This document shows positions 8,880-27,424 of a stretch of DNA of 27,427 nt, piece by piece. A program made the translations under genes and the position numbers. The DNA is taken from IMG/VR virus record IMGVR_UViG_3300044477_000110, positions 1 to 27,427 of that record. One strand, given 5' to 3'. Under the pieces are notes generated by a model. It made no database searches, was not told the origin of the DNA, and saw only the letters and a program-made list of their open reading frames with translations. The DNA is from a virus (Duplodnaviria > Caudoviricetes). How positions within the stretch are numbered: position 1 is the stretch's first letter; the number at the start of each line of letters is the position of its first letter.

Positions 8880-9586
8880 TATGCGAATTTTTCAAGTAGT
8901 TTGTTCTTTCGTTCTTCTGTCGCTGGCTGAAGTATCTGCCCGGGTTTTCCTTTCGTCTCGACTTTTATCGAATAAATATCCTGCCATTCTTTCCCCTTGG
9001 CGTATTCGATTAGTTCTTTCGCCTTCGTGATATTATCCCCACTTAATTCAATAAGCCGCTCACTGAATCGCTTAACACCAGCTTCTGTTTTCAATGGTTT
9101 TTTGATTAACTTTCTATATTGTAACCAATCGTTTACCAATCCCAAGTAAACGGTATTCACAAAGCTTAGATCAAGTTCCGTCCTCACCTTCTTATTTGGG
9201 GGCGTTTTAATAATTACATCAGAAAAGGTATCAGGAAAAGCCTCAGAATTTGATACCTTTTCTGATACCTTTTTCTTAACTTCCTTAACAACAGGCTTTT
9301 CAAACATATCAGATTCAAAAGAGTACCGGCCTAATGACCTTCTACCTTTGCCTGACTTATAAGAAATAAGCCCCGCATTTATCAGGTTGATTCGTGCGAG
9401 GCTTACTGTATTCTCGGAGACGTTTAAGGATAGACAAAGCTCAAGGTTTGAGCATTCAAAGACATCCTCCCATCCCGACTCATTACAGAGGGCAACAAGC
9501 TCATAATAGAGAGCTTGATCTACTGCTGTCAATCGGGATTTGCGCCGTGCCTTTCTGAGTTTATCGGTTAGAGAGTATCCGTCCAT
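8879..9586 (-). CDS. Phage replication initiator (N-terminal winged helix, internal iterons)
   Basis: DnaD-N-like ALYYELVALCN..GW...ARINLINAGLI; central iteron-encoded KVSEKVS; C-terminal WLQYRK....KPLK; upstream of the loader ATPase. Confidence 0.75.
   Translation of the reverse strand: MDGYSLTDKLRKARRKSRLTAVDQALYYELVALCNESGWEDVFECSNLELCLSLNVSENTVSLARINLINAGLISYKSGKGRRSLGRYSFESDMFEKPVVKEVKKKVSEKVSNSEAFPDTFSDVIIKTPPNKKVRTELDLSFVNTVYLGLVNDWLQYRKLIKKPLKTEAGVKRFSERLIELSGDNITKAKELIEYAKGKEWQDIYSIKVETKGKPGQILQPATEERKNKLLEKFA
9223..9273. repeat. Iteron array inside the initiator gene
   Basis: AAAAGGTATCAG, GAAAAGCCTCAG, then inverted TTGATACCTTTT, CTGATACCTTTT (12-bp units). Confidence 0.7.
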
Positions 9587-10711: not shown

Positions 10712-11157
10712 TGGTTAATTATATAAGAAACGGCTTGAGGTGTTATCCCGTATTCCAAAGCTAGTTTGTTCCCTTTTTCACCATTTCTGAATCTAATTCT
10801 TATCTCATTCCTCTGTGCATCATTAATCTTTGCCGATGTTGAATGTTTTTTCATGATTATTATCCTGCATTCATATGAGCATGTTTTCTGTCTATTCCGT
10901 TTTGTTGGGTTTGGGGTAAATTCCCTTTTACATACTTCACAATTTTTCACAACTGCATACTTCTGATTATGAATAATGCTATGCTCTCTGTTTGATAATA
11001 ATTGCAAATTTGATAGCGAATTGTTCCGCTTATTTCCGTCAATATGATGGACTACTTCATGTCTCATTAGTTTTCTGCCTAGATGTGATTCCATAATAAA
11101 ACGGTGTTCGTCAATGCTTCGACCTTTAATTTTTCTTCTTTTATAAACTGTTTCCAT
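10708..11157 (-). CDS. Free-standing HNH homing endonuclease
   Basis: EHRFIME..LGRKL...EVVHHIDGNKRNN..SNL; CxxC...CS..C zinc motif; C-terminal HTH; likely start METVYK at 11157 (track starts at 11196). Confidence 0.9.
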   Translation of the reverse strand: METVYKRRKIKGRSIDEHRFIMESHLGRKLMRHEVVHHIDGNKRNNSLSNLQLLSNREHSIIHNQKYAVVKNCEVCKREFTPNPTKRNRQKTCSYECRIIIMKKHSTSAKINDAQRNEIRIRFRNGEKGNKLALEYGITPQAVSYIINH

Positions 11158-12082
11158 TTTCGTATAAATCAATCGTTTTAAATATTTGAAATACAAGCTG
11201 TGGGATTACGCTATTTCCGTAAGCCTTTATGGATTCGTTTCGGTGTTTCGGAAAGGTAATTCCGTCCAGTTGGGTGGGAATCCCATCATTTCCCCCACGA
11301 ACTGGGGATTGAGTTGGGAACTTATCCCAGGTTGGCCGAAAAAATCCGGCAGACTGTTCGTTTCTGTTCGTCCGGCTGCTTGTAATGCCTTCGTGCTTCT
11401 CGCTCCTTTGTAATCCCGCGTTGTCGGTGTTGGTATCAGTCCAATGAACATTGCCATGTCCAAAACACTGTTCGGTCTGTTCTCTCCCGCTTTTCGGCTC
11501 ATCATTGTTTCCGCTCCAACATCCAAAAGTCCTTGCACTCGTTCTGGATGGTCCCGTTGTACACTTGTTGGAGTAGGCCACAAACCAAACCCTTTCTCTT
11601 CTATGGGGGGCGTTGACGGCACAAGCTGGAAGTACATACGGTTGTACTTCGTACCCCGCAGCTTCCAGGTCAGTTTGCACCTCGTTGAATACCAATCCCC
11701 CGTTCCAATTAACAAGGCCGAAAACGTTTTCGCCCACAACCCATTCCGGCTGAATTTCCCGAATGACTCTAAGCATTTCAGGCCAGAGGTGACGGTCGTC
11801 TTCTTTCCCAAGTCGCTTTCCTGCAAGGCTGTAGGGTTGACATGATTAAGGGAACCCGCCCACAACGATAGTTGCTTTGAGCGGGTTCCAGTTTGAGTTT
11901 TTTTCAATTGATTCACGGGTTAATGTTTTAATATCGGAATGATGATAAGCATTTGGCCAGTAGTATTTCAGTACTCGTTGGCCGAATGGGTTGATTTCGC
12001 ATGATGAAATAACATCCCATCCTGCCCATGTGGCTGCGAGTTCAAACCCACCAATCCCAGAAAACAAGCTAATTAGCTGCAT
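11141..12082 (-). CDS. DNA (cytosine-5) methyltransferase, alpha chain, interrupted by in-frame TAA TCA at the catalytic Pro-Cys (recoded gene or pseudogene)
   Basis: One frame joins track ORFs 11846-12082 and 11141-11776: motif I SLFSGIGGF, motif IV GGFP*SCQPYS, VI ENV, VIII PHRRERVWFVA, X KAYGNSV; motif IX absent from this frame. Confidence 0.85.
11227..11916 (-). CDS. Overlapping-frame methyltransferase beta chain (TRD-like repeats and motif IX); start uncertain
   Basis: 229 open codons inside the alpha gene; LWPTPT, IPTPTTRDYKG, LNPQFVGEMMGFPPNWT; architecture like M.EcoHK31I beta. Confidence 0.7.
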   Translation of the reverse strand: MNQLKKTQTGTRSKQLSLWAGSLNHVNPTALQESDLGKKTTVTSGLKCLESFGKFSRNGLWAKTFSALLIGTGDWYSTRCKLTWKLRGTKYNRMYFQLVPSTPPIEEKGFGLWPTPTSVQRDHPERVQGLLDVGAETMMSRKAGENRPNSVLDMAMFIGLIPTPTTRDYKGARSTKALQAAGRTETNSLPDFFGQPGISSQLNPQFVGEMMGFPPNWTELPFRNTETNP

Positions 12083-15146: not shown

Positions 15147-17567
15147 TTATATTTTAAATTCCTCCGAAAGAATATCAATCAATTCATCCTGCATCTGGAT
15201 TTCAATGGACTGATGATCTCCGGTGATCTGGTTAGCAACTTCACGTTTTTTATCGATTAGCATGTAAATCCAATTATCAATTGTTTGATAGCCAAGAAAG
15301 TAAGTGCATTGAACTGCGAATTTTTGACCATTACGATCACATCTGTCCTCGCATTGAGTTGTATCGGCGGGATGCCATGGAAGTTCTATAAAGCACACAT
15401 TTGAGCTCGCAGTGAGAGTAATTCCGACACCAGCGGCTTTTATGCTACAAATGATAACATCAACATTCGGATCGTTTTGGAAACGGTCAATACTTCGCTG
15501 TCTGGTCTGTGAATCATCTTCGCCTAATACAGTGACAGCCTTGGGAAATTCCTTCTTAAGCATATCCGAAACCTCTCTCAAATGGCAGAATAGAACCACT
15601 TTTTGATCGGCACTTCTAAGAGAATTCACATGCTCTCTGACTGCCTCAATCTTGCCCCTTGCAGCAATGTTTTTAAGGATTCCGATCTTTACCATCGCCG
15701 CACCTCTCATCGATCTGGCTATTTCAGCATTGCTGGCCTGTCGGTATTCTTTGAGATATCTTTTTAAATCATCCTCAGCTACCTTGTATTCATCAGAAGT
15801 AGTGATCTCAACAGGGAATAGATGTCTGGTTTTAGGAGGTAGATCTTTCAGAACATCTCGCTTTAAACGCCTGATGAATCCTGTTTCTTTCAATTTATCT
15901 CTTATCTCATCACTGCTCATTGATTTGAAACCATCGGCACCGCCAAAATGCTTCAACTGGCCGGTGATGGATAGTAATGGAATCATGTCATCTCTATGGT
16001 TCACAACAGGCGTTCCTGTTAACCCAATCACATATTCCCGCGAAGTGGATAATCCTTTGATGAGTTTACTTTGAAGCGTTCCGGCTTCTTTGCAGCGATG
16101 GAACTCATCGATGATTATGGATTTGAATATCTTAGTCTCTGGCCTAAAATGAATCTTTTTCAAGGTCAGTTCTCCCGGTTCAATATCTAGTACAAAGAAC
16201 TTTTTCAAGCTCTCATAATTCACAATGAAGATGTCGGTTTTCGTGTCTAACCCGAAGGGGTTTTTCATTGCAAATGCCCACCAAGAATGCAGATTTGTGT
16301 TGCTCAAGATCATGGCTCGTTTGCCGGTCCACATTTCCCATTCTCGCTGCCAGTTGATTTTTAAAGAGGATGGGCATATTACAAGACAAGGGAATGAATG
16401 ACTATTGTTTACCGTCATAATGCTTTGAGCCGTATTGTGAGTCACCACATAATCATCCGTCACATACAAATGATCTGGATGATCTACCTTTATGCATCTA
16501 GACTCTTCGACCCCAACAAATGCTATTGATTTAATATACCTTCTAACAGTCGTTGGCTTCCAATTATCAGCTTTGCGTTTTAACGAAAATGGGCTGAAAC
16601 TGACATTAATACTCACTTGATATTCTATGCCTTTCCCTTCTTTTAAACGATCATATCTATTAAGCCTGGCAATGCCTCCAAGTGACTGAACAAGCTTTAC
16701 GACATCCTTGGCGAGTAATAGAGATGTTGTATGAAAAACAGTTCGATTTTTTATACAACTACCATCTGTATCCATCAAGCCTTTTAGAAGATCTATCCTT
16801 GATTCTACGTCATTGTATAAGTACTTTTCAGGAATGGATTTCTCGCCCGACTTGACATTTAAACCTATGCTTTCAATTTCCTCGCTCCACGGATTCTTTT
16901 TGGTTGTATTTGTCTGTGTAATATAAAATTGAGGGCAATTAAGGTTGCTGTTTTTCCAAACTTTCAAATTCGATGGCAATAACGTTTTTACTTTATCCAA
17001 TATTTGACTATCAAAATCAGGATTTGAAAAACAAACATTTCCATTGGATAGTGAACCATCCCCGATAAGCACTCCTAATATATACGAGGGTATAACTAAA
17101 GTCCGACTATTAAAACAGACAGGTTGGGTTATTGGAATCTCCCATTTTAACACAGGCTTTCTTCCTGTATCATCTCTTTTCTTTGATGGTTTTAATATCA
17201 ACCCGGATTTTATAAGTTCACCTGTCGTTTTAACAACCCACCCAAGTCCTCTATTCCTTCTGTTTCGATCTCTTACACACCACAAATGTTCAATATCGCA
17301 TTCGGTCGTACTTTCATCATTAAATGTCACCTTATAAATAGGCCTTTCGCCCTGATTATATACACCTGACACATTAGATGTTTGTCCATCGGGGGTAGAA
17401 ATAATATCACCTACCTTTATTTTCCCCATCGAGATATGTCCATGTGGAGTGTATATTAATGACTTTAGAGGTTGGCTTTTACCTAAACCTGGCTCATCTG
17501 CATTGATAAACTTTTTATATTTCAATCCCGATTGAATCCCCTCTTTTTGATATGGATACGGCTCCAT
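15147..17567 (-). CDS. SNF2/HARP-like helicase containing an intein
   Basis: ADEPGLGK|intein|T, IIDEFH, LTGTPV, AAGVGITLT, QCEDRCDRNGQ. Confidence 0.9.
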   Translation of the reverse strand: MEPYPYQKEGIQSGLKYKKFINADEPGLGKSQPLKSLIYTPHGHISMGKIKVGDIISTPDGQTSNVSGVYNQGERPIYKVTFNDESTTECDIEHLWCVRDRNRRNRGLGWVVKTTGELIKSGLILKPSKKRDDTGRKPVLKWEIPITQPVCFNSRTLVIPSYILGVLIGDGSLSNGNVCFSNPDFDSQILDKVKTLLPSNLKVWKNSNLNCPQFYITQTNTTKKNPWSEEIESIGLNVKSGEKSIPEKYLYNDVESRIDLLKGLMDTDGSCIKNRTVFHTTSLLLAKDVVKLVQSLGGIARLNRYDRLKEGKGIEYQVSINVSFSPFSLKRKADNWKPTTVRRYIKSIAFVGVEESRCIKVDHPDHLYVTDDYVVTHNTAQSIMTVNNSHSFPCLVICPSSLKINWQREWEMWTGKRAMILSNTNLHSWWAFAMKNPFGLDTKTDIFIVNYESLKKFFVLDIEPGELTLKKIHFRPETKIFKSIIIDEFHRCKEAGTLQSKLIKGLSTSREYVIGLTGTPVVNHRDDMIPLLSITGQLKHFGGADGFKSMSSDEIRDKLKETGFIRRLKRDVLKDLPPKTRHLFPVEITTSDEYKVAEDDLKRYLKEYRQASNAEIARSMRGAAMVKIGILKNIAARGKIEAVREHVNSLRSADQKVVLFCHLREVSDMLKKEFPKAVTVLGEDDSQTRQRSIDRFQNDPNVDVIICSIKAAGVGITLTASSNVCFIELPWHPADTTQCEDRCDRNGQKFAVQCTYFLGYQTIDNWIYMLIDKKREVANQITGDHQSIEIQMQDELIDILSEEFKI
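16434..17477 (-). mobile_element. 348-aa LAGLIDADG intein (class 3-type) in helicase Walker A
   Basis: Starts SQPL after GLGK and ends VVTHN before Thr; LGVLIGDG and LKGLMDTDG motifs; W (EHLW), C (RCIKV), T (VTHN) triad. Confidence 0.9.
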
Positions 17568-21522: not shown

Positions 21523-22431
21523 TTAAAATACTTCATCATCATCTTCAACTATCACACTTGCCTGTTGAACTACAGGCTGAGATGGTTCAGTAGCCTGAAA
21601 TGGTTCGGGCTCTGGTTTGGCTGTCATCTCTGGGGTTATGCGCTCATCTAATCCATAATTAGCAGCCTGTGGTTCATCATTCTGTAGTTTCGAAAACTCA
21701 CCGATTCTGACTTTAGGAAATGTTTTAAAGGCATGCTTAATGGTTTTTGCAGCAAGGAAACCGGTATCAATCTGCCCTTCATTTGATGAATAAAGAGCAT
21801 TGCCAGAGTTGTTTCGATTCTTCTTCGCAGAATAACCTTTAAGACGTTCAATATCATCGGGTAACATCCACGAGAAATCAACCGACCCATCAGCTCTAGT
21901 TAGTCGAATAAACGAACCAATGATATTCTTTGACATTCTGGGTATAGATGCCTCATAAAGGCAAATCTTCTGACCTCGCTCGTTGACTATAGGCTTGAAT
22001 TTATCTCCTTCGTAAACGATCACAGGACTATCTGCATATAGCAGTTGACCTGATTGCATCCTTAGTGCGAGTTCTCCATAAGGGCTTACCTCTAAAGTTG
22101 CTCGTTTTTCGTATTTATCTCCAACTTTCACACTCCCAGGCAAGACATAGAGTAAAGGTTGAGATACATTATCTAGGCTCAGAGCCATTGAGGCAACGTC
22201 TAAAAAGCAGCCGTATACCGAAAATGCGGTACATTTCTGAAGTTCTTCACTTCCCTGAATGATTCGGAGCATGTTGTAATGCTCTTTCTCATAGAAATTC
22301 TCAGCCTGATCTTCATCTGCTTTATGCAGATTCATAAAGAGATTGATAAACCTCTTTTTAACACGCTCATCCTCTAAAACTTGTAGAGGCTTCATTGCGC
22401 TTAATTCCTGAATTGTTAACTTTGCTTCCAT
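21523..22431 (-). CDS. recT: RecT-family single-strand annealing recombinase
   Basis: LQKCT..SVYGC, YVLP, SPYGEL, VYEGDKF, AKTIKHAFKTFP, acidic tail. Confidence 0.8.
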   Translation of the reverse strand: MEAKLTIQELSAMKPLQVLEDERVKKRFINLFMNLHKADEDQAENFYEKEHYNMLRIIQGSEELQKCTAFSVYGCFLDVASMALSLDNVSQPLLYVLPGSVKVGDKYEKRATLEVSPYGELALRMQSGQLLYADSPVIVYEGDKFKPIVNERGQKICLYEASIPRMSKNIIGSFIRLTRADGSVDFSWMLPDDIERLKGYSAKKNRNNSGNALYSSNEGQIDTGFLAAKTIKHAFKTFPKVRIGEFSKLQNDEPQAANYGLDERITPEMTAKPEPEPFQATEPSQPVVQQASVIVEDDDEVF

Positions 22432-22483: not shown

Positions 22484-22667
22484 ATAGCACACTTAGACAG
22501 TCATCTAATAAGTCAGTATTCAATACACTTTCAGTATTTCCGTCTAAATCATCCAGTTTTAAAACCTGATATTCTCTGAACTCGTGGTTCTTTGCTAATA
22601 TGAATCCATGTCTAAATAGTCTGTCTTTGACTTCAATTTCTTTAAGGTTCCAATGGTCGGTAAACAT
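22482..22667 (-). CDS. Hypothetical protein
   Basis: 61 aa, operon orientation. Confidence 0.5.
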   Translation of the reverse strand: MFTDHWNLKEIEVKDRLFRHGFILAKNHEFREYQVLKLDDLDGNTESVLNTDLLDDCLSVL

Positions 22668-22691
22668 TCGAGTGAATAATTTAAGGGTTAG

Positions 22692-22717
22692 AAAAAAGGC
22701 CGGTACTCATCCCGGCC
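22692..22717 (-). terminator. Intrinsic terminator closing the structured non-coding region
   Basis: Minus strand GGCCGG-N8-CCGGCC-TTTTTT. Confidence 0.75.
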
Positions 22718-22794
22718 ATTAAGTAGATTCTCAAAATGTCTGGGAAGACGCCCAGACTCGCTGATTACATCCTTTAATGGTCCCTTAGGACATG

Positions 22795-22855
22795 CACCAC
22801 ATGCGGGACTCGAACCCGCGACCCTGAGACTCTAACCAACTGAGCTAATGTGGTG
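22795..22855 (-). ncRNA. tRNA-like element A, anticodon arm absent
   Basis: CACCACAT-TA-GCTC AGTTGGTTA GAGT-CTCAGGGTC-GCGGG TTCGAGT CCCGC-ATGTGGTG: perfect acceptor stem, canonical D and T arms, only 9 nt between them. Confidence 0.75.
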
Positions 22856-22923
22856 TTTGCCGTTACAAAAAGCAATCTTGCGAAACATCACGGCATGTTT
22901 ACTTCTATAGCTGTGCGCTATGT

Positions 22924-23054
22924 GGTACATGCGGGATTTGAACCCGATTCGCTATTCCTTGCGAACACCCTTCCCATCGTTTACCAGTTTTGACATAAGT
23001 CTGATTGACGTTGCTTATGCTGATTCTGAGGTGCGCCCAATACGCTCATGTACC
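22924..23054 (-). ncRNA. tRNA-like element B, anticodon region replaced by a ~85-nt structured insert
   Basis: GGTACATG/CATGTACC acceptor stem, D-like GCGT-ATTGG-GCGC, T arm CGGG-TTCAAAT-CCCG; inner stems GCATAAG/CTTATGT and TTCGC/GCGAA. Confidence 0.65.
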
Positions 23055-23058
23055 GTTT

Positions 23059-23367
23059 GCCGGTGTTATTCCCCGGCTCAGTCATGTACTGCATTTACCT
23101 GTGTTTATCGGAAAAATCAACCCGTCGGGGCAGATGTGTCATGCAGTCTTCATTCCGGCAGACCGGCCGGAATAACTTACCCCAGTATTTTTAGGAGAGC
23201 GGGTTGGAAAGCAATGAACCTTTAATTCATTCCCGCATCTCCCATTGTTCCCGAGTAGTATATCAAAACCGCTCGGGTACTGTTTTTTATTCTTTCTAGA
23301 GATTTATAAAAACAGCGAAAAAATTACTCCGCATCGTACCCGAAAAGCCGATCAAGGCCGTTCGGGT
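23059..23367 (-). ncRNA. Tandem hairpin array, probable structured RNA
   Basis: Seven consecutive inverted repeats: 23059-77, 23088-147, 23152-73, 23194-242, 23250-77, 23280-315, 23338-67. Confidence 0.5.
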
Positions 23368-23405
23368 TAAAACCATAAATCGAAAATTCTTTCAATAACT
23401 TTCTT

Positions 23406-23521
23406 TTTATAGTTTATAGTTTTATAGTTTATAAGAGTCATTAGAAAAAGTATCAGGAAAAGTATCAGGAAAACCCTCAGAAAAAGCCTCAATATTTGAT
23501 ACCTTTTCTGATACCTTTTTC
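23406..23521. repeat. Origin-like element: AT-rich TTTATAG repeats plus six 12-bp iterons
   Basis: TTTATAG x3 plus TTTATAA at 23406-34; four direct units at a 12-bp period from 23446, two inverted units at 23496 and 23508; 28 bp identical to 9248-9275. Confidence 0.75.
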
Positions 23522-23837
23522 CTGTTTTTTATCCAAATCTCAACGCATGACACTATAACATCTTATTATCAGTTTTTCTATGCCTACAGTTAAAAGCCAT
23601 TTCAATCTGACTTTCGGCCTGACAACGGAGCTGACCTACTTATTCGGCCGTCACCCATAAAACTGTTTTTGCGACTTACTTACCCGTAAAGGCTTAGCTG
23701 GCAAAAAGTGAATCGCGTAACGGACTAATTTGCCAAAGCCACATATTCAATCGTTCGCTTCTCGCTAATACCGAATCTTATCCCGTATCATTGGCCACGA
23801 TGCCTAACGGTCATTAATAACAGTATCCGATTGCACT

Positions 23838-23853
23838 CAACATTTCAAAGAAC
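23838..23853 (-). promoter_or_regulatory. boxA-like antitermination element
   Basis: Minus strand GTTCTTTGAAATGTTG just after the stop of ORF 23885, at the head of the non-coding region. Confidence 0.55.
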
Positions 23854-23884
23854 ATTATGCCATTTTTGGCTTGTGAATAGAGGT

Positions 23885-24115
23885 CTATGCCTCTATCCTG
23901 ATGTCGCCAACCATTGTTGACTTGTAGGTTGATTTTAGGATTGAATTTCTGATCTGCTCAACATCATCTGTTGTAATCCCATCTTCACACCGATATGTGA
24001 TATTATTGCCGTGCTGATTTGACACGGAAATCAGGTCAATATTGGTATTACAGGTCATGACAATCCCAGGGAGGATAGTTTCGCACCATACTCCAGCTGT
24101 TGCAGTTGCTTCCAT
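23885..24115 (-). CDS. Hypothetical protein
   Basis: 76 aa, operon context. Confidence 0.6.
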   Translation of the reverse strand: MEATATAGVWCETILPGIVMTCNTNIDLISVSNQHGNNITYRCEDGITTDDVEQIRNSILKSTYKSTMVGDIRIEA

Positions 24116-24121
24116 AAAGTT

Positions 24122-24397
24122 TTATTTATTGTGTTCGAACCAGCTTGCTCTGTTGCTTGTGCGAGCTACTGCCTCTAATTGAATGCGATCTATCCTAACT
24201 TTGGTATTACCTTCTCCATCTTTTATTGGCCTAACCAAACCCTCTTTTATCCATCGATTAACGATACTTTTACCGTGAATACATTGAGCTTCTTTCAAAC
24301 TTAAATGAGGCTTTAATTGACCAGTAGCAACCAATACTTTCTGAGCTGCTAATTCGGCTGTCTCCAACATCATGATTCTCATTTGCACCTCAGTCAT
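24122..24397 (-). CDS. Excisionase-like / MerR-type HTH DNA-binding protein
   Basis: LSLKEA...G...VNRWIKEGLVRP.K.G....VRIDR..LE. Confidence 0.6.
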   Translation of the reverse strand: MTEVQMRIMMLETAELAAQKVLVATGQLKPHLSLKEAQCIHGKSIVNRWIKEGLVRPIKDGEGNTKVRIDRIQLEAVARTSNRASWFEHNK

Positions 24398-24400
24398 AGC

Positions 24401-25195
24401 TTAGTTTTTGATGGTTCGTTTCGAATACTTCTGTAAGAACTTACGCCCCTCCTCAGTCCAATAAAGATGATGTGATGTTTGATCTTTGCCGTTGTGGTCA
24501 ACATAGGGGTGTGGCTTGTATTTGGCATATCCTTTGCCTGAAAAATCAGCCCTTAACGCCCATGTGTCGTTTACCTTACGCAATACACCTTCAGCTTTTA
24601 AAAATTGGTTTAAAGCCTTAGCCGATGTAAAACCAAGCTCGTTAGCTATTTCGGTGGTACTTATCAGGCTACCACTGTTCATCACACTGTCGTGGTACTC
24701 TATCTTTGGCGCAGCTTCTCTGAGTTGTTCGGCCTGCTTCTGAGCTACCTGATTAAAAACTTCGGCTCTGCTTTCAGCTACCTGACGGCGTTCGCGCTCT
24801 GCTTTTAGCTCGGTTGCCAAGCCTATCAATAAATCAGGATCCAACAGTATCTCTTCCAGTTTCGACGGTGTTGCCGTCATTCCTTTGGTTCGCAACTCTT
24901 TTAGGTATGATTTTACCTGACTCTTGAACGCCTTGGCAATGGGCTTGCGGCTTTGCATCAATACTTCATAGAGGCCGTCTTCGGTGAGAAAATTACATTC
25001 TCCTTGCAACCCTCCTAAGTTAAACTTAGCCACCTCTTCTGGTTCTACACGGCTGATCATGTCCGTCACATTGCTTAATCCAATCCATTCCGCTACTTCC
25101 TTTGCCAAAAACAAAGGCTCTTCAAACGTTCCGTAAACGCTTACCGATTTATCGAGTATTGATGTGGTTCCGACTATTTGCAATTGAGTTGTCAT
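24401..25195 (-). CDS. Phage antirepressor (BRO-N plus ANT/KilA-C)
   Basis: YGTFEEPLFLAKEVA, FLTEDGLYEVLMQSRKPIAKAFK; APKIEYHD, TTEIA.ELG..SA..LN..L, WTEEGR.F. Confidence 0.9.
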   Translation of the reverse strand: MTTQLQIVGTTSILDKSVSVYGTFEEPLFLAKEVAEWIGLSNVTDMISRVEPEEVAKFNLGGLQGECNFLTEDGLYEVLMQSRKPIAKAFKSQVKSYLKELRTKGMTATPSKLEEILLDPDLLIGLATELKAERERRQVAESRAEVFNQVAQKQAEQLREAAPKIEYHDSVMNSGSLISTTEIANELGFTSAKALNQFLKAEGVLRKVNDTWALRADFSGKGYAKYKPHPYVDHNGKDQTSHHLYWTEEGRKFLQKYSKRTIKN

Positions 25196-25198
25196 AAT

Positions 25199-25750
25199 TT
25201 AGTTTTTAAAAAGGTTATTGTCTTTTGCGTACCTGATGAAATCGGCCATCGAGTGGATATGTAACTTCTTGAAACTATTTTTCCGATGGTTATTCACAGT
25301 ATTGAGAGAGATAAAAAGAGCTGATGCAATTTCGTTATCGTTTTTACCTTCGTAGCACATTTGCATTACTTCCAATTCGCGGACACTCAATGAACTATTA
25401 AACTTAGGGTTGCAAATAACACCGTCGTGCTTACATTCACCTCTCATGGGACATGCCACAAATTCAAAGTTCATACGCCCTATGTGGTCTATATCCAGTA
25501 CATTGTCATAGTTCGAGAAGTTGCACTTGATAAATCTCCGAACTTTTAGAAATCGGTTGAACGATGGGTTCTTGATACTCGCCTTGTAATATTCAGACAG
25601 GGCTTTATTCGCTTCGGGATAGAACTCCATGATTATCTCTTCCATTTCGCCAATAAACTCAATGTCCGTCTGACTCAACATGCGCGTACCTGCATCATCC
25701 TGTATCATCACCTCATTATTGGGTGTTGTATAAAATTCTATTGATTTCAT
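25199..25750 (-). CDS. LuxR C-terminal HTH transcriptional regulator with Cys-rich N-terminal part
   Basis: LSVRELEVM...G..DNEIASALFISLNTVNNHRKN..KKL; CPMRGEC...IC. Confidence 0.85.
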   Translation of the reverse strand: MKSIEFYTTPNNEVMIQDDAGTRMLSQTDIEFIGEMEEIIMEFYPEANKALSEYYKASIKNPSFNRFLKVRRFIKCNFSNYDNVLDIDHIGRMNFEFVACPMRGECKHDGVICNPKFNSSLSVRELEVMQMCYEGKNDNEIASALFISLNTVNNHRKNSFKKLHIHSMADFIRYAKDNNLFKN

Positions 25751-25950
25751 GCTTTCTCGGGGAATAACTCGTTTAGCTTATGGCCTGTAATGCGCGCTAT
25801 CGCCTGTTGTTCAACATGTGATGGATATGATCGCATGTTCATCCAACGATAAAAGGTGGCTACATTTCGTTTCGTTTTGTCTTCAACCTTACGCCTAAAG
25901 GTTATTTTCTCCTTATCTGTCAGGCTGTTGAAATAGTCTTGTATTGTCAT
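25747..25950 (-). CDS. Cro-like HTH protein
   Basis: 67 aa; ATFYRW....YP.....AIA.ITG....ELFP. Confidence 0.65.
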   Translation of the reverse strand: MTIQDYFNSLTDKEKITFRRKVEDKTKRNVATFYRWMNMRSYPSHVEQQAIARITGHKLNELFPEKA

Positions 25951-26051
25951 TCTACAACTATTATTTGTAATTTATTCTTTATTTTGCAGTTTTTTATCAT
26001 ATTTGTATAGCACTTTTATAATCACTCTAATAATACTAAGCTATACTATAC

Positions 26052-26240
26052 ATGAAAGAGATAGTCATTTGTAAGCATTTTGTTGATAGCATTGATAATA
26101 AATTAAAGTCGAAACAAATACCTGTTGAAACCAATAAATTGCTTAGTGAAGGCTGGCAACTCGAAAACACCTTTTATTCGGAAGGGGCAGTCGTGTTTGT
26201 GCTGTCGAAATCAACCCCCGATGATTTAAAGCCGATGTAG
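26052..26240 (+). CDS. Small hypothetical protein on the repressor strand
   Basis: 62 aa; NKLLSEGWQL motif; ATG with AT-rich leader. Confidence 0.55.
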   Translation: MKEIVICKHFVDSIDNKLKSKQIPVETNKLLSEGWQLENTFYSEGAVVFVLSKSTPDDLKPM

Positions 26241-26362
26241 TGTTGTTTGAGTAATTTGATTTCGGCAATAGCTTTGTCAAAATCATTTTCGTTTGCTAAC
26301 ACCAGTTTAATGTCAGCACTTTGCCAAAGCTGGTTTTTGTAGAATGTTACTGTGAGTTCCAT
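26174..26362 (-). CDS. Hypothetical protein
   Basis: Likely start MELTVTF at 26362 (track starts at 26458); 3' end overlaps the convergent ORF. Confidence 0.4.
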   Translation of the reverse strand: MELTVTFYKNQLWQSADIKLVLANENDFDKAIAEIKLLKQHYIGFKSSGVDFDSTNTTAPSE

Positions 26363-26374
26363 TGTTTTAGGGAT

Positions 26375-26387
26375 ATATGTCAAAGAA
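26375..26387 (-). promoter_or_regulatory. Second boxA-like element
   Basis: Minus strand TTCTTTGACATAT between the first and second early ORFs. Confidence 0.4.
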
Positions 26388-26405
26388 AGTTTTGAGACGG
26401 TGATG

Positions 26406-26618
26406 TCACTTATCGGATAGTGTGTTTTCGTTGAGAAAAGACTCGATATCTCGTGCAATAGGGCTCACTTTTTCGGGAGGGCAACCCACTCTAATAGCCA
26501 TATTTATAGATTCTTTTCGTAGGTTATAAATATTAGATTCATCAACGGATGTCTCAACTTCTTTTTTCATTATCGCCATGCCTAGCAGGCGGTAAATGGT
26601 TTTTGTTTTTTGTATCAT
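26406..26618 (-). CDS. First leftward early gene, hypothetical
   Basis: 70 aa; starts about 30 nt downstream of a TATATTTG promoter element. Confidence 0.55.
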   Translation of the reverse strand: MIQKTKTIYRLLGMAIMKKEVETSVDESNIYNLRKESINMAIRVGCPPEKVSPIARDIESFLNENTLSDK

Positions 26619-26646
26619 TGTGCATTGTTATTTGATTACTACAATG

Positions 26647-26698
26647 CAAATATAAAGGAATCCTTTAATATAATCCAAGAACTTAAAGGAATATTTTA
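26647..26698 (-). promoter_or_regulatory. Early lytic promoter with two putative CI operators
   Basis: Bacteroidota -7 element TATATTTG (26647-54); palindrome TAAAGGAATCCTTTA (26653-67) and variant TAAAGGAATATTTTA (26684-98). Confidence 0.7.
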
Positions 26699-26722
26699 AT
26701 AAAATATTAAAATAATTTTTAA

Positions 26723-27424
26723 ATGTCTGTTAAAGAGAGACTTATAGAGTTTGTTAAGTATAAAGGAATTTCCAATTCTGAGTTTTGTAGAAGAATTGGA
26801 GTATCAAATGCCTTTATAAGTTCTATGGTTAAGTCGATCCAACCAGACAAACTTAAAAGTATTACTTCAAGTTTTCCTGAATTAAATACAGGCTGGTTAA
26901 TGACAGGCGAAGGCGAAATGTTGAAGGATGCAAATACCGAATACAAATCGGAATTACAAGAAAAGCAATTTGCATCGCACATTGAAGTAAAAGTTGTAAC
27001 CACAAATGCTCGCGCCGGATACTCAGAATCTTATTATGCCGATGAGTATTTACAAGATATGCCCACTGTATTGATTGAAGCAGATAGGGAATACAAGGGC
27101 AAGTATTTGGCATTTGAAATAAATGGCGATAGCATGGAGCCAGACTACAATGCTGGCGATGTAGTTATATGTAGAGAAATAAAGAGAGATCTTTGGCGAT
27201 CGAAACTACATATTAACGATTGGGATTTTGTGATTGCCCATAGTACCAAGGGTATTATGCTGAAGCAAATAACCAGTCATAATGTAGAAACAGGCGAAAT
27301 TGTCTGCCATTCTGTAAATACCGAAGAGCATCCTGATTTTACATTAAACCTTCGCGAAGTGGCGTTTCTCTATAATGTAGTAGAGCATCGTATTTCAGGA
27401 AAGAACAAGAGAAGACACCGATAA
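26723..27424 (+). CDS. CI-like repressor (HTH plus S24 peptidase)
   Basis: N-terminal KERL..F....GIS..EF...IGVS, LNTGWLMTGEGEM; catalytic GDSMEP and IMLKQ; divergent from the lytic operon. Confidence 0.9.
   Translation: MSVKERLIEFVKYKGISNSEFCRRIGVSNAFISSMVKSIQPDKLKSITSSFPELNTGWLMTGEGEMLKDANTEYKSELQEKQFASHIEVKVVTTNARAGYSESYYADEYLQDMPTVLIEADREYKGKYLAFEINGDSMEPDYNAGDVVICREIKRDLWRSKLHINDWDFVIAHSTKGIMLKQITSHNVETGEIVCHSVNTEEHPDFTLNLREVAFLYNVVEHRISGKNKRRHR

Follow-up and report, generated by a model that had tools for sequence, protein, structure and literature searches.

What kind of RNA is encoded where the acceptor stem and T arm of a tRNA enclose 86 nt of other sequence, and what could such an RNA do for a phage? 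The question is raised by element B (22923..23054, minus strand), found in the 27,427-nt stretch of DNA that was analysed here (the window), which derives from the genome of a temperate phage. A cI-like repressor gene at 26723 (plus strand) is followed on the minus strand by genes for a LuxR-type regulator and an antirepressor, two small ORFs, a stretch of approximately 1.2 kb that is devoid of long ORFs (22668-23884), a 61-aa ORF, a gene for a RecT-like annealing protein (21523..22431, minus strand; phrog_148, E 8.5e-08), and the replication and packaging genes. Element B and a second tRNA-like unit, element A, are located between the antirepressor region and recT, which lies downstream of both; no ordinary tRNA gene was found in the window. 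The closest named relative of the RecT-like protein (71% identity) is encoded in a contig of Breznakibacter xylanolyticus, and all 11 of its matches bear Bacteroidota names. From the names of these relatives, the host of the phage likely belongs to the phylum Bacteroidota.

A terminator-like GC hairpin with a T run (22698..22717, minus strand) lies between A and the 61-aa ORF that precedes recT; it was identified by consensus match only, with two such hairpins found against 1.5 expected in shuffled sequences. The promoter scan was uninformative (3 found, 3.9 expected), and minus-strand matches to a Bacteroidota -7 motif occur at 26654 and 24303 (within 22600-26800).

The window also contains several features of separate interest: (i) a 58-nt repeat-rich stretch within the replication-initiator gene (9218-9275; likely origin iterons), an 86% alike copy of which in the non-coding early leader (23452-23521) is a candidate initiator binding site for autoregulation or a candidate decoy, (ii) strongly folding stretches upstream of B (23180-23399, z -5.35; 23055-23180, z -3.63; both minus strand), for which another computation gave z -3.27 and which have no Rfam match, (iii) a non-coding segment (23552-23791) with approximately 95% identity to contigs of public runs X3 and X14 (the latter an RNA library) and partly X2, possibly another small RNA, whose folding is no better than that of shuffled sequences, (iv) a DNA methyltransferase (11141-12082, minus strand) whose two ORFs match consecutive parts of phrog_363, pointing to a frameshift or a broken gene, and (v) an SNF2-type helicase (15147-17567, minus strand) whose internal LAGLIDADG domain probably represents an intein.

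Anatomy of element B and its relationship to element A

Element B is a tRNA-shaped unit of 131 nt plus a discriminator A at 22923; the CCA end is not encoded. The predicted 8-bp acceptor stem (5' strand 23047..23054, 3' strand 22924..22931) is followed by a short D-like hairpin (23033..23045; 4 bp and a 5-nt loop with GG at its end), an 86-nt middle occupying the place of the anticodon and variable arms (22947..23032), and a T arm (22932..22946; 4-bp stem, 7-nt T loop), all on the minus strand. The eight acceptor pairs are present in both the MFE and the centroid structure, with probabilities of 0.98-1.0 for the seven pairs computed, and the corresponding values are 0.87-0.89 for the D-like hairpin and 0.81-0.92 for the T arm. 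The whole unit folds better than shuffled sequences (z -2.06), whereas its middle, folded alone, does not (z -0.72). Within the middle, the hairpin just 5' of the T arm (22966-22947) is the firmer one (pair probabilities 0.67-0.94), and the stem at 23020-22993 is marginal (0.5-0.59). The earlier note had drawn the element as 22924..23062, with a middle of about 85 nt containing two extra stems. The element is real and the length of its middle was nearly exact, but only one of the stems is well predicted, and the RNA would start at 23054 rather than 23062, the additional bases being part of the leader.

Element A (22795..22854, minus strand) is a 60-nt tRNA-like unit located 70 nt downstream of B; its D and T arms are present but its anticodon arm is all but missing, and it is matched by the Rfam tRNA model (44.1 bits) with the anticodon arm deleted. 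In the best folds the acceptor and T branch is composed of 8+4 bp in B, where all 12 pairs are intact, and of 7+5 bp in A. A 20-nt T-arm/acceptor string, which the earlier note had recognised as common to both elements, is present in the window in exactly two copies, at 22927-22946 and 22799-22818 on the minus strand, and was absent from all of 100 shuffled sequences. A T arm combined with a perfect 7-8-bp acceptor stem is likewise confined in the window to B and A, while among 200 shuffles one such frame appeared once and two never; the frame of B is beyond chance.

When A is aligned with B, the matching blocks are the last 8 nt of the leader, the four innermost pairs of the acceptor, a portion of the D arm, and the 3' end (18 of 20 nt). 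At the three outermost acceptor pairs both strands have changed, and pairing is retained without a mismatch, as had been read from the sequence before. Since the elements have the 3' 20-mer and an aligned 5' block in common, duplication is the simplest explanation of their origin, and these similarities support the proposal that A and B are paralogs. The CTCAG motif, also put forward as a common feature, is indeed found in both, but a pentamer is too short to serve as evidence. Only 11 viral loci were found to contain the 19-nt core of the 3' 20-mer, and at least six of them are ordinary tRNAs. A further observation is that the last bases of B (22920-22926, minus strand) are a copy of the 5' acceptor strand of A (7 nt), and a longer alternative frame could therefore close on the 3' strand of A, in competition with the B acceptor.

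Leader hairpins, exchangeable slots and the wider class of tRNA shells

Both elements are preceded by a hairpin: that of B (23059..23077, minus strand) is separated from the acceptor by a 4-nt AAAC spacer (23058-23055), and that of A (22859..22894, minus strand) ends with CGGC followed by AAAC (22858-22855). The two had been considered the same leader; the CGGC end and AAAC are present in both, but the hairpins have only their last 8 nt in common. In a prophage locus (L001/L047), 42 of 43 nt of the B leader (23095-23053) are kept, and the sequence behind it is different and leads to a tRNA-like unit whose anticodon arm is irregular; another unit, which is armless, is located upstream. A search of metagenomes with the leader pattern gave eight matches, seven of which were dropped as chance-like or of unrelated context; in the one retained (L061), a Leu-type frame, whose middle measures about 100 nt, stands behind the identical 19-nt leader. 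Related leader hairpins were detected at 109 loci of viral contigs (70 distinct), and at 27 of the 70 the hairpin is followed, at a distance of no more than 3 nt, by a closed acceptor and T-arm unit (57-185 nt), a combination seen at 0 of 70 on the control strand; by eye, at least three of the 27 units read as ordinary tRNAs. Hairpins of this type (L066-L174) are short and GC, with a purine-rich loop and usually a conserved 5-nt motif ahead, and they head tRNAs, tRNA-like units or ORFs. No Rfam family spans the leader hairpin in the 20 related loci searched; the hairpin may be an antitermination or processing element.

Part of B itself is carried nearly unchanged by contigs of four public runs (X2, X8, X3 and X11), all derived from DNA or probably-DNA runs. 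The X2 and X8 contigs show zero differences, that of X3 has two changes and one inserted base over 22904-23084, and in the X11 copy the discriminator is changed (to G in one relative). A change at 23009 in a contig of a relative falls in the loop of the weak stem of B. These copies confirm the sequence and, being nearly identical, provide no covariation. A diverged homolog of B was not found in cultured phages or plasmids, a B-like D-arm and T-arm pattern had 0 matches in viral contigs, and among 401 genomes of the order of G001 the leader alone was present, in a single genome (G001).

The positions of A and B are occupied by other units in related DNA. In the X5 contig, the B leader (23097-23053) is followed by a Leu-type D arm; in the X11 contig, the 3' part of B is followed by the start of another frame in the slot of A; and in X2 and X4, the 58 nt behind the D arm of A are exchanged for 101 and 100 nt, respectively, a replacement known by its length only. 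Pieces of X8, X10 and X5 matching the arms of A may stem from ordinary tRNAs and were not used as evidence of a loaded A. Four gut-phage loci with a common upstream flank (L136, L072, L090 and L099) carry units of 61, 102, 119 and 119 nt, and recT-linked loci of other phages contain, in the same region, tRNA-Met, tRNA-Arg and more units with a shrunken anticodon arm. Such units are placed upstream of recT, in the early operon, in many relatives. These comparisons show that the units in these slots are interchangeable and that the slots have been refilled in relatives.

Additional tRNA-like units in which the anticodon arm is shrunken or replaced by a tetraloop hairpin (L001:3455-3530, L006:3105, L010:3157 and L299:594-680) are located upstream of recT or elsewhere in other phages. 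In another viral contig (L142:585-845), a match to permuted tmRNA (74.7 bits) was found directly behind an armless 57-nt unit, which may belong to a two-piece tmRNA.

How widespread are tRNA frames with foreign middles? A pattern whose only requirements were a Leu-type D loop and, 62-92 nt away, a T loop matched at least 119 loci of viral contigs, with about 1000 such stretches estimated in the collection; the middles are 59-89 nt long and unrelated in sequence. Among the matches listed, 78 of 114 distinct loci close a perfect 7/7 acceptor, compared with 2 of 114 for a control 7-mer. This comparison is the fair test of pairing, because the 75 strict units taken from the matches listed were selected for perfect pairing; for the same reason a covariation count over the class units, being circular, was rejected as proof. 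The strict units have 33 different acceptor sequences and middles that fall into 65 clusters, and the 38 units with one common acceptor bear 32 unrelated middles. Two features outside the search pattern recur, namely U before the T arm (70/75) and A as the discriminator (60/75), and B carries both. By contrast, U at position 33 is not enriched (28/75). The middles fold weakly (mean z -0.79, below -2 in 6 of 75), which also fits neutral filler. The pattern was absent from the 121 cellular genomes searched, and a search of cultured phages with one unit (L223) returned 21-nt D-arm matches only. Frames of tRNA with unrelated middles are common in viral contigs. Together with the refilled slots, they support the suggestion of a tRNA scaffold that displays a variable module.

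A covariance model (R1) built from 46 of the 75 strict units scored L061 at 77.5 bits, T5 RNA1 at 45.7, T4 rnaC at 20.2 and T5 RNA2 at 19.0, and the true tRNA-Leu of T4 and T5 at 43.6 and 38.4 bits, respectively. In B it matched the T arm only (8.0 bits, E 1.2), without a full-length Leu-type match, and since B fails this strict model it is classified as a divergent variant. Element B would work like the Leu-type shells and shares their slots, but stands outside the strict Leu-type family. The top R1 match in the window (22926-22792, 18.4 bits) was rejected as chimeric, with the tail of B paired to the 3' strand of A.

Comparison with known tRNA-like RNAs

Tested as a canonical tRNA, B has the 12-bp acceptor and T-stem branch with its T loop; it has G rather than U at position 8 and a short D loop, and the 86-nt middle stands where an anticodon arm with its 7-nt loop would be expected. 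ARAGORN called no tRNA and no tmRNA at B in the window. The earlier note had named a known Rfam family or an intron-containing tRNA as identities that would contradict its proposal, and neither was found: B matches no Rfam family above noise, introns included, except for a 15-nt T-arm fragment, and no contig joint in eight runs omits the middle.

The same note considered the family possibly undescribed, which holds as regards Rfam but not as regards phage RNAs, where T5 RNA1 and RNA2 and T4 rnaC precede it. The T5 record (NC_005859) lists RNA1 (30501-30644) and RNA2 (32959-33083) as 'tRNA-like stable RNA with unknown functions'. Like B, they are phage-encoded, 125-144 nt long, and built of an acceptor stem and T arm around a long non-decoding middle; the likeness found is one of layout rather than of middle sequence. 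The T5 RNAs are encoded inside a large tRNA cluster of a lytic phage, whereas B is part of the early operon of a temperate phage and differs from them in its 8+4 branch and its adjoining armless paralog. The T4 species 1 RNA (rnaC, 139 nt) resembles B in that a hairpin immediately precedes the T arm, which is close to the 3' end, but the fold of rnaC is far stronger (z -4.57), its acceptor imperfect, the D-like hairpin missing and its timing late in infection. The role of rnaC and rnaD is described as unknown (PMC3014915; PMC9697503). The Leu-type shells share with B the overall plan, the leader and the slots (L061 and the X5 contig), the U before the T arm and the A discriminator; their long D loop is missing from B. 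The class and the leader hairpin are not described in the literature searched, which consisted mainly of open-access papers and did not extend to the older T4/T5 RNA papers.

The 12-bp acceptor branch split 8+4 is also a feature of 8/4 allo-tRNAs, and some allo-tRNAs and irregular tRNA polycistrons are phage-borne and some unused in translation (PMC5389517). In the allo-tRNAs described there, the anticodon arm is present, the long D stem is capped by a tetraloop and position 73 is mostly G or U (PMC5389517), in contrast to the 4-bp D stem, 5-nt loop, A73 and lack of an anticodon arm in B. Given that only the 8/4 branch is found in B, its identity as an allo-tRNA was rejected.

YrlA Y RNAs and tmRNA resemble B in that a tRNA-like elbow module without a working anticodon is joined to another domain. 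G-U at 3-70 is the alanine mark, and tmRNA combines this identity pair with a tag frame; the 3-70 pair of B is U-A, and its identity as a tmRNA was rejected because the covariance-model score was 12.1 bits against a cut-off of 47 and ARAGORN made no call. YrlA is encoded beside Ro60 and has a permuted layout in which the acceptor stem is an internal stem-loop, as outlined in PMC4201824, whereas the ends of B lie at the acceptor and the window has no Ro60-like partner gene. No Ro60-like protein was detected among the 38 window proteins (compared with PHROGs, and eight of them also with Pfam), and Y RNA identity was rejected on these grounds and the lack of an Rfam match. A remnant of an attachment site was rejected as well, as both acceptor strands are present and no integrase gene is found beside B in the window.

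Proposed role and alternative explanations

We propose, with a probability slightly under one half (about 0.45), that B is a host-processed, stable, non-decoding RNA acting in trans as a decoy or carrier for host tRNA-binding proteins. Both elements would be transcribed from the early leftward promoter region, and the transcript may end near the terminator-like hairpin (22717-22698), itself a weak match. Host RNase P would cut the 5' end of B at 23054, since the 12-bp acceptor and T helix is what this enzyme measures; the T loop is required and the D loop is not, as reported in PMC4919913. After 3' trimming and addition of CCA, a stable RNA of about 135 nt would result, whose shell may supply maturation and stability while the fast-changing middle sets the partner, most plausibly a tRNA-targeting defence protein. 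The role in trans is the least certain step of this explanation. It is favoured by the conserved shell, the fast-turning middle, the early timing and the use of phage tRNAs against tRNA-cutting defences, which they counter as decoy or supplement (PMC13096335). Those precedents are complete tRNAs, whereas A and B are armless, and the proposal is also weakened by the poorly folding middles, by the degenerate D arm and the G at position 8 of B, by the G discriminator of one relative and by the failure of B with the R1 model.

The same weak folding, combined with a frame that is retained around unrelated middles, would be expected if A and B were processing marks in cis, where cleavage by RNase P punctuates or stabilises the early transcript, with the middle as mere filler under no constraint. 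The location of such units upstream of recT in the early operon of many relatives agrees with this reading, as does the statement in PMC4919913 that RNase P is content with the T arm and acceptor. A tandem pair of marks would be redundant, however, the terminator-like hairpin (weak as it is) separates A and B from recT, and the Leu-type members retain a long D-arm sequence that is dispensable for RNase P; we regard cis marks as possible but doubtful. It is less probable that B is a functionless, decaying remnant of a duplicated phage tRNA gene with an insertion, although relatives have ordinary tRNA-Met and tRNA-Arg genes in this region, the D arm of B is degenerate, and the nearly identical copies of B give no support to long-term selection on it. 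Decay is difficult to reconcile with three acceptor pairs that differ from those of A without a mismatch and with the 12 intact branch pairs, or with the variety of acceptors kept by the class (33 in 75 units, which were chosen for perfect pairing).

Whether the middle could be an antisense guide on a tRNA shell, controlling phage or host mRNAs in the manner of C4 or CI RNAs, was addressed within the 27-kb window, which covers only a part of the phage and none of its host. The locus is downstream of the antirepressor gene. Within the window, the middle finds matches of at most 9 nt on the early/late strand and 11 nt on the other, within the range of shuffled sequences, and its best duplex with 34 start regions (-24.3 kcal/mol) was equalled in 43 of 60 shuffles; complementarity in this 27-kb stretch is no better than chance, and we rate an antisense guide as improbable. 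Least probable is an intron-containing tRNA or a miniature tmRNA active in translation. A possible 5-bp stem at the anticodon position around the insert (probability approximately 0.35) and one open frame across the middle, with a stop before the T arm, could be read in its favour. Against it stand the ARAGORN and Rfam results, the U-A rather than alanine-type 3-70 pair, the rarity of U33 in the class, and the absence, in the eight runs, of contig joints that skip the middle. Self-splicing introns, moreover, are far larger than 86 nt.

Returning to a host-processed RNA acting in trans, a broader and distinctly tentative extension, which we rate as unlikely in its full form, is that the early operons of temperate phages house a toolkit of exchangeable RNAs, A and B being two of its cassettes, with leader-marked slots, RecT-type swapping, release by RNase P, and middles serving as ligands for different host defence or tRNA-binding proteins. 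If true, the toolkit would be the RNA counterpart of the variable anti-defence gene loci and would explain the stable RNAs of T4 and T5.

The tRNA-like stable RNAs of these two phages were already known, with their role unexplained. At the locus described here, the early operon of a temperate phage carries, in an exchangeable slot, a tRNA shell of non-Leu type with an 8+4 branch and an armless paralog. Such tRNA-like phage RNAs are common in viral contigs, in exchangeable slots; those in the window are missed by ARAGORN. As a near-empty and a loaded unit are placed 70 nt apart, the pair offers a clean test of shell versus insert function. Should the inserts prove to be ligands of defence proteins, they would represent a new kind of anti-defence RNA.
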